Below, one piece after another: positions 7,977 to 60,033 of a stretch of 64,000 nucleotides of DNA (its first letter is position 1; every line of letters starts with the position of its first letter). Position numbers and translations under genes: made by a program. Source of the DNA: a virus (Duplodnaviria; Caudoviricetes); IMG/VR virus record IMGVR_UViG_3300029705_000039; one strand, given 5' to 3'. The notes below the pieces were generated by a model, which was given only the letters and a program-made list of their open reading frames with translations, did no database searches and was not told where the DNA came from.

Positions 7977-8684
7977 GTGGTGAAAATAATGAAAATCCGT
8001 CAAGCCCCTGTGGCTGATTTACTGAAATATATTGGAGAATTATATGCTAATCGCAACCATAATAAACAAAAGAGTATTTTTGATGTTATTAATAACTATT
8101 ATTGCTCTTTAAGTAAGCATAAGACTATTATGCCAGTTGCGGGCGACTATTTTAACGATTGGTGCGATTTAAATTGGAGTCCCACTATGAAGAATTGCCC
8201 TAATATTCCTGGTATTATTATTTATAAAGATAATCCAAATGGCACAAGAAAATATGGACTAATCTATCATAGTGGCTATATTATTTCCGAGCCACTTCAA
8301 ACTAATTATATGTCTTTTTATGAAATTGATAATAATGGTCGTGTATCTTCCCATGTTTATTGTAAGGATGATTGGGATGGTTGGGGCGCGCCTATAAGAT
8401 TTTTTAGCTTCCCGCCAGAAGATTATGTTGATAGTAGCACTTGGACTTTAGGTGAACGTGTATTATCAAAAGATGTATTTGGCCACGACGTAAGGCAATT
8501 ATAGGCTTTATTACATAGAGCGCACGAGGAAGTGCCATTACATGGCTACTTTGAAGACCAAACCCTAAAAGCACTACATTTAACGCAATATTGGTGTAAT
8601 ATTCCTCAAACCAATAGCTTCAACTTAAATAGTGTTGAAGGCAAAAAAATTATTGAGTATTTAACCAATGGTAATAAAGATTAA
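7977..8684 (+). CDS. peptidoglycan-binding domain protein (1 TAG=Gln)
   Basis: GHDVRQL*ALL matches PG_binding_1 G.DV..LQ.LL; open to TAA 8684. Confidence 0.7.
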
Positions 8685-10125
8685 ACTATCTAGAGAAGAG
8701 AATATCAATTATTATGGCTCTTCTGAAATTGAACTTGATATTGAGGAATATTTAAAAGGTGTAGTTCCAAGCGAAATTGGTAATGCTCATATTGAAGCGT
8801 GCGCGGCCTAGGCTGTATGCGCTCGCACCTATGCGGTAATTAAAATTAATTCCAAAGGCTATATTACTGATGAGTCCGCAAAAGATTAGGCATTTCGGAC
8901 TTCTCGTTTAACTGGCTATCCCAATGCTTATGAAGGAATTAAAAAGACAGCGGGAGAAATATTATATTATAATAATAAAATTGCTCACTGCTATTATAGT
9001 TCTTCTAATGGCGGCCGCACTACTTCTTCAAAGGAGCGTTGGGGCGGAGACTATCCTTATCTAATTAGTTAGGATGACCCCTATGATAGTGGTAGCGGTA
9101 ATGGCCATGGTGTGGGCATGAGCCAATTAGGAGCAAAGAATCGTGCGGCCGCGGGTCAAACTTATAATGAAATTTTAAGCTTCTATTTTCCCGGCACATA
9201 TGTGCGAGGAGATGAATCTAAAGTAATGACAATCGAACAATTTATTTTAAATTGGTGTAAAGAAAGAGTAGGAAATCCTTATATTTATGGTGCAACTCAA
9301 AAGAAATGTACCGTTTCTTATCGTAAGGAACGCATGGCACAATATCCAAGCTTTGCCGCGAATATTAAAAAATATTGTTATGTCTTAAGTGGCAAGGGCT
9401 CTGCCTGTTCCAACTGTAAATGGTATGACAAAGAGCGCAATACTCATAAATATGCTTATGACTGTGCTCAATTTATTCGTTGGGGCGCAAACGCCGCGGG
9501 CCTGCCACCTGTGAAAAGTGGCGCAACAAGTCAGTGGAAAAGTGATATTTGGCAAGAGAAAGGCGATTTTAAGGATATTCCTACTAATAAGTTATGTTGT
9601 GTTTTCCGTGACAAAAATGGTACAAAAGAACATGTTGGATGGTATTATAATGGCATTGCCTATCACGCCCAAGGACATTCCACTGGTGTGGTAGCGACTG
9701 ATAATAAATAGTACAAATCTTGGACACATTATGCCATTATGACAGGTATTTATACCTCTAATGGTGTTCCTATTGAACTTAGTAATAATATTTAGCCTGA
9801 AACTTAGGATGTGATTAAAGTGCTTTATCAAGCAAAAGTAAAATCTACCGATACAAAATTAAATATGCGCAAGGAGCCTAATAAGTCTTCCGAGCGTATT
9901 ATGTATATTCCACCTCAAGGTATGGTTGATGTTATTGAAGAAACTAATGCAGATTGGTGGAAAGTTATTTATGCTGGCGAGACTGGCTATGTAATGTAGG
10001 AATACTTAACTAAGGAGTTAAGTGATACTTCTAAGGACTATTATATTAAAATAAAATGCGGGAGTGAGGCAGATGCAAGGCTTATAGCAAAAGCGCTCCA
10101 AGGCGCAGCAGTCATAGAGGGGTAA
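8668..10125 (+). CDS. endolysin: SpoIID/LytB + NlpC/P60-like + SH3b (7 TAG=Gln)
   Basis: EEYLKGVVPSE, AA*AVCARTYA, GHGVGMSQLGA; YIYGA..YDCAQF..HVGWY; LNMRKEP..WWKV.Y.GETGYV; single frame, 485 aa. Confidence 0.85.
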
Positions 10126-11556: not shown

Positions 11557-11647
11557 TGGGGATTGGTGTAATGGCAGCACGGCGGACTCTAAATCCGTGA
11601 GCCCCCTGAAGGCGTAAGTCAGGGTTCAAATCCCTGGTCCCCAGCCA
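11557..11647 (+). tRNA. amber-decoding tRNA (CTA), Gln-like
   Basis: GCGGA-CTCTAAA-TCCGT; U1-A72, G73, CCA; extended variable region. Confidence 0.88.
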
Positions 11648-18379: not shown

Positions 18380-18520
18380 CAAAACATAACACTTGAGGTT
18401 ATGTTGAGTAATGAAATAATTCCCCGTCCCAAGCCGCGGTGAATTATGGAACTCTAAGGGGGTTTTAGTGTAGAACCACAACTTGGGTAGGCTTAAATGC
18501 CGAAGGAAAAACACTTTTAT

Positions 18521-21261: not shown

Positions 21262-21818
21262 CGGGGTGTAGCGCAGTTTGGCTAGCGCATTCGCTTTGGG
21301 AAAAGAGATTTTTGCTGATATAAAATGTTAGATAATACTCAACAAAAAGGAACTATTACTGAATTACACTGTATCTTAGATTTAACTAATTTGGGTTATC
21401 GGTGTTTAAAACCAGTAGATGAAAGTTCTAAATATGATATAGTTGTCGATTTAGGGCAAGGAAAATTTAAACGCATACAATGTAAAACTGCTTCTTGGGC
21501 TAATGATACAAAACAAGAGCATGTTGCGTTTCAAATTAATACTTGCAGTCAAACCACTAATACAAAAACGACTACTCGTCATAAATATTCTAAAGATGAT
21601 ATTGATTATTTTTACACTTGGTTTGAAGGTCAAGGATATTTAGTCTCCATTGAAGAAGCAACGGGAATTGGCTTTAGATGGCGGTATGAATATCCTGAAA
21701 CGAATCAGAAACAGGGAATTCATATCGCTAGTGAATATAAAATTGAGGAGGTTTTAAAGGCAATCTAAGATTTTCCTGGAGCGAAGGGTCGTGAGTTCAA
21801 ATCTCACCTCCCCGACCA
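21262..21818 (+). tRNA. tRNA-Pro(TGG) interrupted by a 479-nt insertion (about 21299-21777)
   Basis: 5' half CGGGGTG...TTCGCTTTG, 3' half GGAGCGAA...CTCCCCGACCA; rejoining gives loop TTTGGGA. Confidence 0.85.
21325..21768 (+). CDS. PD-(D/E)XK endonuclease (PDDEXK_5 / intron-associated type) inside tRNA-Pro
   Basis: KG.ITE...P.....YDIVVD...RIQCKT...Y...DIDYF. Confidence 0.8.
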   Translation: MLDNTQQKGTITELHCILDLTNLGYRCLKPVDESSKYDIVVDLGQGKFKRIQCKTASWANDTKQEHVAFQINTCSQTTNTKTTTRHKYSKDDIDYFYTWFEGQGYLVSIEEATGIGFRWRYEYPETNQKQGIHIASEYKIEEVLKAI

Positions 21819-21949
21819 ATTAAAATTTGACATTTTTCAAATTTTATAATATAATATATACATAAGGTAAGGAACTTAATCAAATGCTCTCACCTCACGC
21901 TACACGCACCTCCTTGGGCTTTGTTCTATTACTTCCTTACCTTTTATGA

Positions 21950-22026
21950 TGCGGAGTGGAGCAGTTGGTAGCTCGTTAGCCCCATAAGCTAAAGGTCGCA
22001 GGTTCGAGTCCTGCCTCTCGCACCCA
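21950..22026 (+). tRNA. initiator-like tRNA-Met(CAT), atypical
   Basis: resembles fMet D and T arms; shortened loop CCATAA and bulged acceptor. Confidence 0.65.
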
Positions 22027-22031
22027 ATAAT

Positions 22032-22205
22032 AATTACAACAAAAAGGTATGCTTAGAAGCAGCAATCCTCTAAGGAGTAGGTCAAGCACCATAAGTGCAA
22101 ATAAAGTAGTGTAATGTCGGGCTGAATCACAGTGGCATATGGCTATGAAGTGCTTGTGGGAAAATGTGAGTAATCTTTTGGCGTAATAGCACATTTGTTG
22201 TAATT
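22032..22205 (+). ncRNA. 23S rRNA L11-binding domain (H43-H44) mimic with about 100-nt insert
   Basis: GCTTAGAAGCAGC and GCGTAATAGC loops in rRNA order, closed by a perfect 12-bp stem. Confidence 0.8.
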
Positions 22206-22710
22206 GCCTATCTACTAGCGTAGAAAAGGTTCCTGGATACGTCTAGGCGTATCCTATATGGAAAGGTTAAGGTCGCTACTTGACCTTTCCACTCACCGAC
22301 TTGCGGACGTAATCCGCTAAGGAAGAAACCGACTTTAGAAGATAAGTAGACGCGCAGGATGGCCACCATGGAGAGTGCGAGGTTCAAGTCCTCGGCGGTT
22401 AAATATACTTTATCTTTGGTTAGTCCTCAGCCAGGCGTTTGCGGAAACGTCGTGACAAACATAGATTATGGCAAAATGGCAAAAGGAATCCGCATTCTTA
22501 GTAGCCTATGGTGGGAAGAGGATGCCCCACTTTAGACGGAAATAGCTACCCGTCGGAGCCGCGTGTGCAGGATTCGCGGCGAATAAAATAAATAAATCGC
22601 TGTATGCGGCGAAGGCCGTTGAAGCACCTGTTAGCTAAAGGTGGTCTTTCGAAAGTCTATCGTAGAATAAATTTCTACGCGGTGCGGAGATAGCCGTATA
22701 AACTCCTTTT
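22206..22710 (+). ncRNA. candidate structured ncRNA(s), including degenerate tRNA-like unit about 22327-22400
   Basis: many hairpins, T-arm GAGGTTCAAGTCCTC, no ORF. Confidence 0.4.
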
Positions 22711-22714
22711 ATAT

Positions 22715-22788
22715 GGGGTCATGATGTAATGGTAACATAATTGCCCTGCAAGCAATTTTTCGGGATTCGAATTCCCGTGGCTCCACCA
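22715..22788 (+). tRNA. tRNA-Ala(TGC)
   Basis: G3-U70, loop CCTGCAA. Confidence 0.85.
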
Positions 22789-24331: not shown

Positions 24332-24421
24332 TGCTAGTATAAATATTAAAAATATGTTGTTTGGTAAAATTTTAGCGGATAGAGGAATCTATCCGCTTAT
24401 TTTTATAGGTAGGTGAAAAAG

Positions 24422-26284
24422 ATGGTTCCATATTCATAGAATATTTATGGGTATCCCTATAGTGTTATTTTAAAAGGCAGCGACATTCAAGCCCAATCAG
24501 GTCAACTTTTAAATAATTCTGAATCTGGGATACTAGAAAATTATAATATAAGTAGATTTCAAAGAATAATTGATGGCGTGATTTCTAAGCTATAGCGAAT
24601 TATTAATAATTAGCGAAATATTTATGAAGAAATTTAGGGAATGAAAAATGGCAAGGGAGCATAGCTACTTAATGATATTTTACATAATAGAAATATTACT
24701 GTAGATGAAAATGGCAATATTAAAGGAATTGCACAAACTTATGAAGAAATGTTTACTGAAGATATAAAAAAGAGAAAAGCGACATTAAAAGAGATGAATG
24801 ATTATAAAGTTCAATATAATCAAGTTATAGAATATATAAATACAGCCTTAAAAAAAGTCAATGTAAACAACTTAAATCCATCTACTTTATAGGACGTTAT
24901 TTCTAAAATAAAAATTAACAATGATAAACAAAGAGGTATCCAAAAATAGATGCTAACCTTATTTGAAGATGAAAATAATGCGAATAGTTTTAGTAAATTA
25001 TTCATGAAATCCGGAACATTATCTAATGATAATCTACGCAAACAATATGCTACATTAATTAAAGATTATAATAACGTTCGTGAGGATTATAAGCGTATTG
25101 CAAAGGATGAGTTGCCGCAAAAAATAGGAAAAGACCTAAATACAAATTTGCAAAAGTTATCTAAAGATTTAGCAGAAGTCTATGACGTAGAATCTGATGA
25201 ATTACGAGAAGCCCTAATAGATTATTTACAGGCGAATATTGATTCATCAGCTGAATTATCAAGTCCCTAGAATTTTACTTTTACAGTTCCAAGAAAAGCA
25301 AAAGGTTTCGAGGCCGTTGAATATACAGCCTCCTTAAGTGTTCCTATTTTAACGCATAATGATTTAGAAAATATTGTTATTTCTGCTATACAAACTGGTG
25401 CTGTTACTGACCGTGTATCTTCGCAAATAAGATGCGAGGTTAAATTTAAAGATCAAGAAGCTTTAACTCGAATTTCAAGAGAAAGATATGATCAAATAAT
25501 TCAAGGTACTTTAAAATTAGAGAAAGAAATTGATTATTTGGCCCTTGATACAGTAACTACTCATGTATCTAATAAAATAGACGATATTATTACTATAATG
25601 AATGAAGACCCTAAAAATGGAAATAAAAAATATAATTTAAAATTTTCAGACAAATTAATCTTTAATGAAACGTATAATGGAGCGGGCGGTCTAGCTAATG
25701 TTAAAATGGAAGGCGGCACTTTATATTCATTAATTAATTTATTACAGGGCGATAATTTAGGTAAGTTAGGCAAAAACCCAAATAATGACAATTTTGAAGA
25801 ATTAATTTTTACCATCCTCAATATGTCTTCTGTATCTAAATTAGCAGGAGATTTAAATAAAATTGAAGTTGATAATTTTATTAAAGCTTTATTAATTTCT
25901 GAAATCTATACTTTAGCATTTAATCCAGAAAGTTTTATTGTAGATTTAGAAACATTAGATGAACGTAATTTATATTTCCATCATATAGATACAATGATTC
26001 TACCTTCTTATAACTTATTACAAAAAACAATAAATTAGTTAGAAGAAATTAAAGAAACCTTACTGACTTCAGAAGGAGCGTAGAATAATTATATAAAAGC
26101 ATCAATTACTCCTAGCACTTCTTATACGGCCTCGTAGTTATATACTCAATATGTTAAGACTCCTAATTTTTAGAACGATCCAGCAGGACAATGGAAAATT
26201 GTGGCAGATTTAATTGCTTCCGACACCGCTATTTCTGTAATGTTGGATATACCAGCTATTTTAGGTTCAGTCGCGGGAAAATAA
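24422..26284 (+). CDS. 620-aa hypothetical protein (12 TAG=Gln), possibly virion-associated
   Basis: single frame with only TAG interruptions, joining ORFs 24950-25270 and 25538-26038. Confidence 0.75.
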
Positions 26285-59031: not shown

Positions 59032-60033
59032 ATGGATATCTTTATTATTATATGTCTAATTGGTTTATCTCTTTACCTTGCTTATAAATATACTCAATTA
59101 CAAAAGTAGCAATCTAGTTATAAGGAACTATAGACGGATATTTAGAACGCGAATAGTATCTTAGACGATATTAAAGCATAGACTAAAACCGCCACAGAAG
59201 AGCTACAAGATATATAGCAATCTTAGACTAGTCATCAGTTTGAATTGGTTGCTCTACTTGCTAAAGAAGACGAATTACGCAAAAATATTGATAGTAATTA
59301 GGCAATCGTAGCAAGCCAAACCGAAATTATTAATAACTATCGAGAGCAATACAGTGCCCTAAAAGATGAGTAGGATAAAAAATGTCTACAAATCATTTAG
59401 GATACTTCCTTAAAAATTAATTAGATTGAAGCAAGTTATAAATTAACTATTGAATAGAAGGAACAAGAAACCAAAGCGATTATTGAATAGTTAGCTGCCA
59501 ATCTTGAGGAAGAGCGGCAAAAATATCTTTCTATTATCGAAACTGTCTAGAATGCTTAGACAGAAGATGAAAAAGATGCCAATAGGCATATTAAAATTCG
59601 TGATGCCACAAAAGATGATATTAATTATCTTTTAAATAATGTTGCCAATAAACTATCTAATCCTGATATTTTATATAAGCTTATTTGGTCTGAATATATT
59701 CAAAAACCTACTAATGAGATGTTAGACTTTATTTTACCACAACGTGATTGCCCGGGTATTTATAAAATCACTAACGATAAAAATAAAAAAGCGTATATCG
59801 GTCGTTCCACTTCTGTCCGTAAACGTCTAACCGACCACATCAAAAGCGCGGTTGGCATAAGCACCATCGCGGATTAGCGAGTTCATCAAGCAATGCGGGA
59901 AGAAGGCTTATGGAATTTTACTTTTGAACTGATAGAAGAATGCGATAAAGACAAGCTTAATGAGCGAGAAAAATTTTATATCCAATTCTTCTCAACCGAA
60001 CAACTTGGATATAATCAGAAAGCAGGAGGCTAA
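59032..60033 (+). CDS. membrane-anchored coiled-coil GIY-YIG nuclease (15 TAG=Gln; absent from ORF track)
   Basis: N-terminal TM, long coiled coil, GIYKITN...YIGRS...R...H...E..GYN. Confidence 0.85.

Follow-up and report, generated by a model that had tools for sequence, protein, structure and literature searches.

The GTPase-associated center of 23S ribosomal RNA (rRNA; Escherichia coli positions 1051-1108, a 58-nucleotide (nt) domain) is the meeting point of uL11, EF-G, EF-Tu, IF2, release factors and RelA with the ribosome, and it is also struck by thiopeptide antibiotics and at least one bacterial toxin. This 58-nt domain alone binds L11 tightly in vitro, as reported by the Draper, Wimberly and Conn laboratories (PMC1802607, PMC6239185). 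The RNA surface for the C-terminal domain of uL11 comprises positions 1058-1060, 1062-1065, 1075-1083 and 1088, and the pocket for thiostrepton and the N-terminal domain lies at about 1067-1070 and 1095-1098; moreover, RelA activation and RF1-dependent termination require uL11 (PMC1802607). Here, we describe a counterpart of this domain in a gut phage, the IMG/VR virus record IMGVR_UViG_3300029705_000039 (Duplodnaviria; Caudoviricetes), from which a stretch of 64,000 nt was analyzed as a whole (hereafter, the window). Positions 22032-22205 on the plus strand correspond to a 174-nt RNA, a self-closed copy of the tip of helix 42 (H42) together with H43 and H44 of 23S rRNA. Covariation among its relatives and model matches to genuine 23S rRNA demonstrate that this predicted RNA is a selected, self-closed structural mimic of the GTPase-associated center, carried by many phages. 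Its parts, with the 23S positions to which they correspond, are the following:

22032-22043 (+): 5' strand of the closing stem, 12 nt, counterpart of the H42 tip; 22041-22043 correspond to positions 1053-1055
22044 (+): unpaired A between the closing stem and the H43 copy
22045-22069 (+): H43 copy, a 25-nt hairpin (positions 1057-1081), with A1061 and the rarer U1062-A1076 pair
22051-22063 (+): 1067 loop, GCUUAGAAGCAGC, inside the H43 copy
22070-22074 (+): CUAAG (positions 1082-1086), with the long-range pair C1082-G1086
22075-22078 (+): GAGU, 5' strand of the H44 base (positions 1087-1090), with the pairs G1087-C1102 and U1090-A1101
22079-22176 (+): 98-nt branch inserted between 1090 and 1091
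22079-22082 / 22173-22176 (+): basal stem of the branch, 4 base pairs (bp), AGGU / AUCU, covarying across the whole family
22089-22098 / 22150-22159 (+): 10-bp stem of the branch, then a distal hairpin, as predicted by folding
22177-22180 (+): UUUG linker, conserved and family-specific, without rRNA counterpart
22181-22193 (+): top and 3' strand of H44, GCGUAAUAGCACA, with the 1095 loop GCGUAAUAGC (positions 1091-1103)
22194-22205 (+): 3' strand of the closing stem, perfect complement of 22032-22043 over 12 bp

The likeness to rRNA was assessed against the 23S sequence of Salmonella LT2 (L216) and against a Paenibacillus fragment from a phage record. The E. coli sequence quoted in a preliminary description of the locus is correct, Salmonella LT2 reading the same. 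The halves of the phage RNA align to 23S positions ~1043-1090 and ~1091-1115, and the 1067 and 1095 loops are identical to those of Salmonella LT2. Four differences are located in helices, namely 1058-1080 (G-C for U-A), 1062-1076 (U-A for G-C), 1082-1086 (C-G for U-A) and 1090-1101 (U-A for A-U), and all of them preserve pairing, in agreement with the preliminary description, in which both loops had been called identical and the four changes compensatory. The strings, the coordinates and the perfect 12-bp stem quoted there are also as stated, with a 35-nt H43-like block at 22044-22078 and GCGTAATAGCACATT at 22181-22195. The pair U1090-A1101 corresponds to U22078-A22191; its A1101 is specific to the phage family, real rRNA having U. 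The window contains the two-loop pattern GCTTAGAAGCAGC-N(100-130)-GCGTAATAGC a single time, and none of 100 dinucleotide shuffles contains it.

A covariance model built from phage copies only (R1) aligns genuine 23S rRNA from the H42 tip through H44, with 52.6 bits for Salmonella LT2 and 60.1 bits for Paenibacillus. In this alignment, exactly the branch and the UUUG linker are deleted, which confirms the insertion site at 1090/1091; the insertion of about 100 nt proposed earlier amounts to 98 nt plus UUUG. Also, the earlier statement that no other rRNA is present holds, with no rRNA gene in the window and no further 23S-like stretch in 21860-22720. The record of the Paenibacillus phage Pd_22F (L215, MZ092003.1, ~83.9-84.0 kb) contains a genuine 23S stretch, rRNA-flanked and branch-less, that is host DNA or an assembly artifact and no mimic.

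The evidence for selection on the fold comes from pair counts in 121 elements of standard spacing. For the pair 1058-1080, U-A is found in 48 copies, G-C in 41, A-U in 21 and C-G in 7; for 1057-1081, A-U is found in 103 and C-G in 15. The tertiary pair 1082-1086 is U-A in 61 copies, C-G (the window's type) in 39 and A-U in 8. All four Watson-Crick types occur at each position of the closing stem from 1053 outwards, and the first three to four pairs at the branch base covary as well, with all four pair types. The nucleotides U1060, A1077, A1084, A1085, G1087 and A1088, which lie outside the search anchors, are present in 121/121 copies, and the core formed by these six together with G1071 and C1072 is 98-100% conserved. 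The U1062-A1076 pair of the window is rare, being found in 4/121 family copies; L338 and one more genuine 23S locus (Olivibacter phylum sample) also have it. In a MAFFT alignment of 50 sequences (A1), 91.6% of the cells pair, compared with 66.4% in shuffles, and the covariation score is 0.637 against 0.157 for shuffled alignments and 0.10-0.20 when the partners are slid by 1-3 columns. Moreover, a covariance model made from 48 other phage copies, with the window and its closest relative (L010) excluded (R2), scores 22031-22209 at 104.2 bits (E ~2e-30), as its sole match in the 64 kb. The selection on the fold that the preliminary description had proposed is borne out by this family-wide covariation and by the reciprocal covariance-model matches.

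The search of phage databases for both loops revealed a large family that keeps the architecture. By blastn against deposited phage genomes, the 5' half is found in unannotated gaps of pf16 and UNO-G1W1 (Pseudomonas), XacN1 (Xanthomonas) and Aeromonas 4_4572; the XacN1 copy lies between protein genes and the other three in or beside tRNA (transfer RNA) genes. Each of these four loci shows the whole architecture, with closing stem, H43 copy, GAGU, a branch of 120-220 nt, UUUG and H44 copy. Exact-pattern scans of IMG/VR, one for each half, gave at least 116 and at least 119 stretches, where the family model matches 94 times in 100 loci and 75 times in 89 loci, and the family occurs in more than 200 IMG/VR contigs. 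From these, 154 distinct elements were extracted, with no real 23S gene among them. The branch is always inserted at the same site and is 41-365 nt long (median 136), and the UUUG linker is present in 107/121 copies (89-97% per position in the search-bias-free set defined below). When 121 branches were compared with Salmonella 23S rRNA by short-word blast, to see whether the branch copies another rRNA region, only chance-level matches were obtained.

About 15 cultured phages carry the family, including Pseudomonas, Xanthomonas, Aeromonas and Rak2-like jumbo phages. Besides those already named, they comprise Pseudomonas Astolliot and Milchi, Xanthomonas XbC2 and XaC1, and a Vibrio phage; the Rak2-like jumbo carriers are GAP32, CBB, Serratia BF, Erwinia pEa_SNUABM_12/19/44/47/49/50, Kaldavass, and Yersinia fHe-Yen9-03 and -04. 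The phage-type 3' signature is also found in 69 stretches of a collection of bacterial genomes from 185,579 species, most of them confirmed by the model. These are mostly contigs of metagenome bins, with some isolates, for example Flintibacter muris DSM 110149. The branch subtype of the window is shared by L010/L269, L140/L220 and L253, and it occurs in the Flintibacter copy, a Clostridiaceae isolate and an Eubacteriales bin, which hints weakly at a gut member of the Clostridia as the host. The branch at 1090/1091, UUUG and A1101 (U in 38 of 39 distinct real sequences) are derived characters common to the family, and this suggests one origin followed by spread among phages rather than repeated capture from hosts.

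Some members depart from the standard form. A branch-less member of ~75 nt, with its own closing stem and a divergent H44 half, is located at 3703-3780 of L016, ~300 nt upstream of a tRNA-Ser. Tandem members are present on a single viral contig (L050, 5120-5369 and 5437-5715; 65 and 83.5 bits). In the short members L144 and L083, a second H44-loop-like hairpin (GUUAAUAGCUCAC and GGUAAGAGCUGGCAC) is found ~33 nt into the branch, and these two may therefore hold the 1095 loop twice.

The distribution of conservation within the mimic bears on its partner. In the family, the uL11 interface is conserved, with U1060, A1077 and A1088 in 121/121 copies, the pair G1059-C1079 in 120/121, and G1063 and C1075 invariant, and any change at the remaining interface positions is compensated within its pair. 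The listed positions of the interface with the C-terminal domain do not include the branch point 1090/1091. The loops were evaluated in sets free of search bias, in which loci retrieved with the 5' pattern are scored for the 3' half, and vice versa. In these phage sets, G1071, C1072, G1093, U1094 and A1098 are ~100% conserved and A1095 95%. Lower values are obtained for A1067 (77%, G in 20%), G1068 (65%, A in 35%), A1070 (75%, G in 25%), A1096 (75%) and U1097 (52%). As a control, 64 genuine 23S loci were collected from phylum samples of the Flintibacter (Bacillota) and Olivibacter (Bacteroidota) references, plus three other genomes, giving 39 distinct sequences, of which 2-3 are spurious matches. 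G1068, A1070 and A1096 are ~95-100% fixed in this control, whereas they vary in 25-35% of the phage copies; G1067 and C1097 are present in a minority of the control sequences. Position 1061 is U in all sampled rRNAs and A in 26% of the phage copies, the window included. The U1061A variant is the one used in structural work on this rRNA domain (PMC6239185). No correlation between the loops (1067, 1068 and 1070 against 1096 and 1097) is found in the family.

At the level of sequence, then, the fold and the surface for the uL11 C-terminal domain are held as strictly as in the ribosome, and part of the factor and antibiotic pocket is freer. This pattern is consistent with an RNA that would bind host uL11 first of all, through the C-terminal domain and away from the ribosome, a reading that we judge slightly better than even. 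No phage uL11 or bL12 scored above threshold in five cultured carriers, and a ribosomal protein partner would thus have to be that of the host.

The surroundings of the RNA suggest how it would be made. Two features upstream of it in the window are relevant:

21827-21855 (+): sigma-70-type promoter-like site, TTGACA, 17 nt, TATAAT (12/12)
21950-22026 (+): tRNA-Met(CAU), ending 5 nt before the closing stem of the mimic

No terminator-like site is found on the plus strand between this promoter and the mimic. The tRNA-Met precedes the mimic on the same strand with 5 nt in between, and the two RNAs would be expected to be co-transcribed and then released by the enzymes that process tRNAs. Downstream, the mimic is followed by a structured RNA and a tRNA-Ala. 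In the family, a tRNA is located within 1.5 kb of 81/121 copies; a same-strand tRNA lies at most 60 nt upstream in about one quarter of copies and at most 60 nt downstream in about one quarter, with no preferred isoacceptor. In GAP32, Serratia BF and Vibrio 2.275.O, the copy is placed between protein genes, with no annotated tRNA in a 2.4-kb stretch. Short metatranscriptome contigs (four runs) that cover the tRNA-Met and 22044-22081 continue into unlike sequence, and they are explained equally well by genuine tRNA and 23S rRNA of other organisms.

Other RNAs are found in the same array. Between the promoter and the tRNA-Met, 21861-21947 corresponds to a stem-clamped RNA of ~87 nt, in which AAGGUAAGGAA and UUCCUUACCUU pair near the 5' and 3' ends (minimum free energy (MFE) -21 kcal/mol). 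The region 22319-22531 is covered end to end by contigs from RNA libraries (four runs, two studies) with ~4-10 differences and few indels, although some of these contigs measure only 97-127 nt and are confined to 22329-22427 or 22408-22530. No Rfam family matches there at E<=10, and the region seems to encode a conserved RNA of its own, which has a tRNA-like T arm near 22360-22400 and relatives in gut metatranscriptomes. A drum RNA (RF02958; 75.8 bits, gathering score 43) is located at 18406-18519, and 21745-21818 has a tRNA-like 3' end (T arm, acceptor strand, CCA), with a weak match to the model of transfer-messenger RNA (tmRNA; 13.9 bits).

Taking these data together, we consider it probable that the mimic is a stable RNA, cut from a tRNA precursor, that would bind host uL11 and imitate its site off the ribosome. 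Transcription would start, most likely, from the promoter at 21827-21855 jointly with the tRNA-Met, and the RNA would be excised from the precursor like a tRNA, its terminal stem presumably protecting it. The 12-bp stem would then clamp the 5' and 3' parts so that the compact fold of the GTPase-associated center is rebuilt. Between 1090 and 1091, the branch would leave the 5' strand of H44 sideways and come back via the UUUG linker; the 3' strand being unbroken, the two halves of H44 could stack as in the ribosome. The resulting RNA-uL11 particle would rival the ribosomes in binding uL11 itself or the molecules that recognize the site made of uL11 and RNA. As candidate gains, the phage might dampen the stringent response that depends on uL11, alter termination, or soak up a molecule directed at this site.

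Several observations weigh against this reading. The Rfam large-subunit (LSU) rRNA models are silent on the region: by cmscan, neither an LSU nor any other family is found on the element, using the gathering score for the window and E<=10 for 21500-22750, and the alignment to RF02541 suggested in the preliminary description gives no match even at the latter threshold. A branch of 98 nt in the middle of H44 is without precedent in rRNA. The secondary structure constrained to the form of the GTPase-associated center reaches -30.8 kcal/mol compared with an MFE of -44.2, the folding z-score of the whole element is only -1.39, and the MFE structure of the window RNA pairs the UUUG linker and the branch end with A1084-A1088, in competition with the native fold. 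Nonetheless, the objection from folding energy is weak because the same energy model misses the native fold of genuine rRNA too, the Salmonella 58-mer being under-rated at -9.1 for the native fold against -16.0 for the MFE. Finally, uL11 is mostly locked in ribosomes, which may limit what a sponge could achieve.

An unlikely alternative, although the best of those considered, is that the RNA is a decoy that soaks up a toxin or thiopeptide aimed at the GTPase-associated center and so spares the ribosomes that the phage needs. The RNA is located in tRNA arrays, and phage tRNA arrays are thought to provide spare parts against tRNA-targeting defences. G1093, U1094, A1095 and A1098 are 95-100% conserved, as a decoy would have it. 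Moreover, attackers of the site are known, since the toxin Tre23 ADP-ribosylates 23S rRNA within 1095-1098 (H44), and H43/H44 is bound by the antibiotics thiostrepton, nosiheptide and micrococcin (PMC8661411). However, 23-48% of the copies differ at 1096 and 1097 of the Tre23 site and at A1067, G1068 and A1070 in the thiopeptide pocket, and most of these variable positions are nearly fixed in real rRNA. Also, a stoichiometric RNA would be poor protection against a catalytic toxin, and the bacteria infected by the cultured carriers are not known to have a defence system that targets the site. The preliminary description had named thiopeptides and translation GTPases among the possible targets; as the common function of the family, such a decoy is weakened by the variation of 1068, 1070 and 1096 in 25-35% of the copies.

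The same variable loops bear on a second alternative, for which we see rather little probability, namely that the RNA imitates the docking site of translation factors and, with or without uL11, binds, diverts or tunes EF-G, EF-Tu, IF2, RF3 or RelA. In the window, both factor-contacting loops are identical to rRNA. In addition, a subclass with long branches (L041, L059, L074 and L154) has, at the same branch position, a sarcin-ricin-type hairpin ~225-245 nt into the branch, with a covarying stem and the reading (A/G)GUAC, tetraloop, GGA(A/G); core and hairpin together would copy both rRNA elements of the factor-binding site. However, this hairpin is not present in the branch of the window, and its motif is not enriched across the family (11 matches compared with 6.7 +/- 2.3 in shuffles). 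The four clear cases are related sequences in which the tetraloop is not invariantly GAGA, and conservation within the mimic is lowest at the loop nucleotides contacted by factors. A combination with host uL11 can be put forward tentatively, and it would be less probable than uL11 binding itself: the free-standing imitation of a factor-docking platform, in its long forms with the sarcin-ricin-type hairpin, may form with host uL11 a mini-particle that traps or diverts GTPases, RelA or defence toxins directed at the site. If true, mimicry of rRNA would define a new class of RNA for host takeover or anti-defence.

The genomic position of the RNA would also fit a device for punctuation or stability, which guides the cutting of tRNA precursors or blocks exonucleases, its rRNA likeness being a by-product of origin. 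The same-strand position in tRNA arrays, the clamping stem, and the presence of another stem-clamped RNA in the same array (21861-21947) agree with it. Nevertheless, it is very improbable, because any stable hairpin would suffice for such a role, whereas ~40 nt of a specific tertiary fold, including the long-range pair, are kept across phages of many hosts while the stems are free to change. Moreover, the copies of GAP32, Serratia BF and Vibrio 2.275.O stand, as described above, away from annotated tRNAs.

Messenger RNA leaders are the classic users of rRNA mimicry (L10, L1, S8), and a cis-acting leader of the ribosomal-protein-operon kind was considered for this reason, together with the observation that a gene of 109-110 amino acids begins ~30 nt past the element in GAP32 and Serratia BF. 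This explanation is hardly credible. The neighbors in the window and in most loci are tRNAs and not protein genes, no ribosomal-protein gene lies downstream, no Rfam leader family matches, and the neighboring proteins in GAP32, Serratia BF, XacN1 and the Vibrio phage have no Pfam match. Lastly, phage records sometimes contain real rRNA fragments, Pd_22F being an example, but a decaying captured host rRNA or a chance resemblance has practically no probability here and is refuted by the covariation data and the reciprocal covariance-model matches to genuine 23S rRNA. Every helix has compensatory changes, derived characters are shared, unrelated phages carry the element in hundreds of copies, and there is no other rRNA in the window.

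Recoding of TAG had been linked to the RNA in the preliminary description, through the effect of uL11 on release factors. The window encodes a tRNA(CUA) at 11557-11647, and only read-through of TAG opens seven additional open reading frames of at least 250 amino acids, each containing 2-15 in-frame TAGs (for example 8668-10125, 24413-26284 and 59032-60033), which fits TAG recoding in part of this genome. A specific tie of the mimic to recoding is not sustained, however, given that Pseudomonas, Xanthomonas and enterobacterial carriers use the standard code and a tRNA(CUA) is found near 9/120 loci.

Returning to the uL11-binding mimic, the wide occurrence and conservation of an imitation of this domain suggest a hitherto unrecognized level of phage-host conflict or control at the site. 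The family offers a classic RNA-protein model system in a natural form that folds by itself and has been diversified by evolution, and its members in cultured phages of Pseudomonas, Aeromonas, Xanthomonas, Cronobacter, Serratia and Erwinia make it testable at the bench. Compared with the GTPase-associated center of 23S rRNA, the phage RNA has the same secondary and long-range pairs, and the core nucleotides are invariant in it as well. Unlike that center, it forms an independent gene of ~174 nt with a closing stem of its own, phage-encoded and mostly placed within tRNA arrays; between 1090 and 1091 the family has the 41-365-nt branch and UUUG, position 1101 is A where rRNA has U, and 1061 and the pocket positions 1068, 1070 and 1096 are variable.

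The leaders of ribosomal-protein genes, such as that of rplJ (L10, RF00557), which copies the neighboring L10 site at H42, are likewise off-ribosome copies of a protein-binding rRNA site. However, they are cis-acting parts of cellular messenger RNAs upstream of ribosomal-protein genes and loose mimics, whereas the phage RNA, to which no Rfam leader model corresponds, copies a whole domain almost exactly and lies by itself among tRNA genes. The RNAs of phage tRNA clusters (tRNAs, tmRNA, drum RF02958, ROOL, GOLLD, and T4 rnaC and rnaD) occupy the same niche and would probably share transcription and processing with the mimic, from which they differ in having no resemblance to rRNA; the T4 species 1 and 2 RNAs (rnaC, rnaD), considered as possible members, give no match to the family model. 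Viral decoys such as adenovirus VA RNA, directed against PKR, and the tRNA-like structures of plant viruses are abundant structured RNAs that imitate a cellular RNA and capture a host protein, and their hosts, targets and folds differ from those of the phage mimic. Full-text literature searches found no description of a phage RNA of this kind, and Rfam 15 holds no such family. Phages are known to carry their own tRNAs, tmRNA and a few ribosomal proteins, and we know of no case of a virus copying a ribosomal RNA domain. As far as these searches reach, a virus-encoded copy of a functional center of rRNA is a new kind of element.

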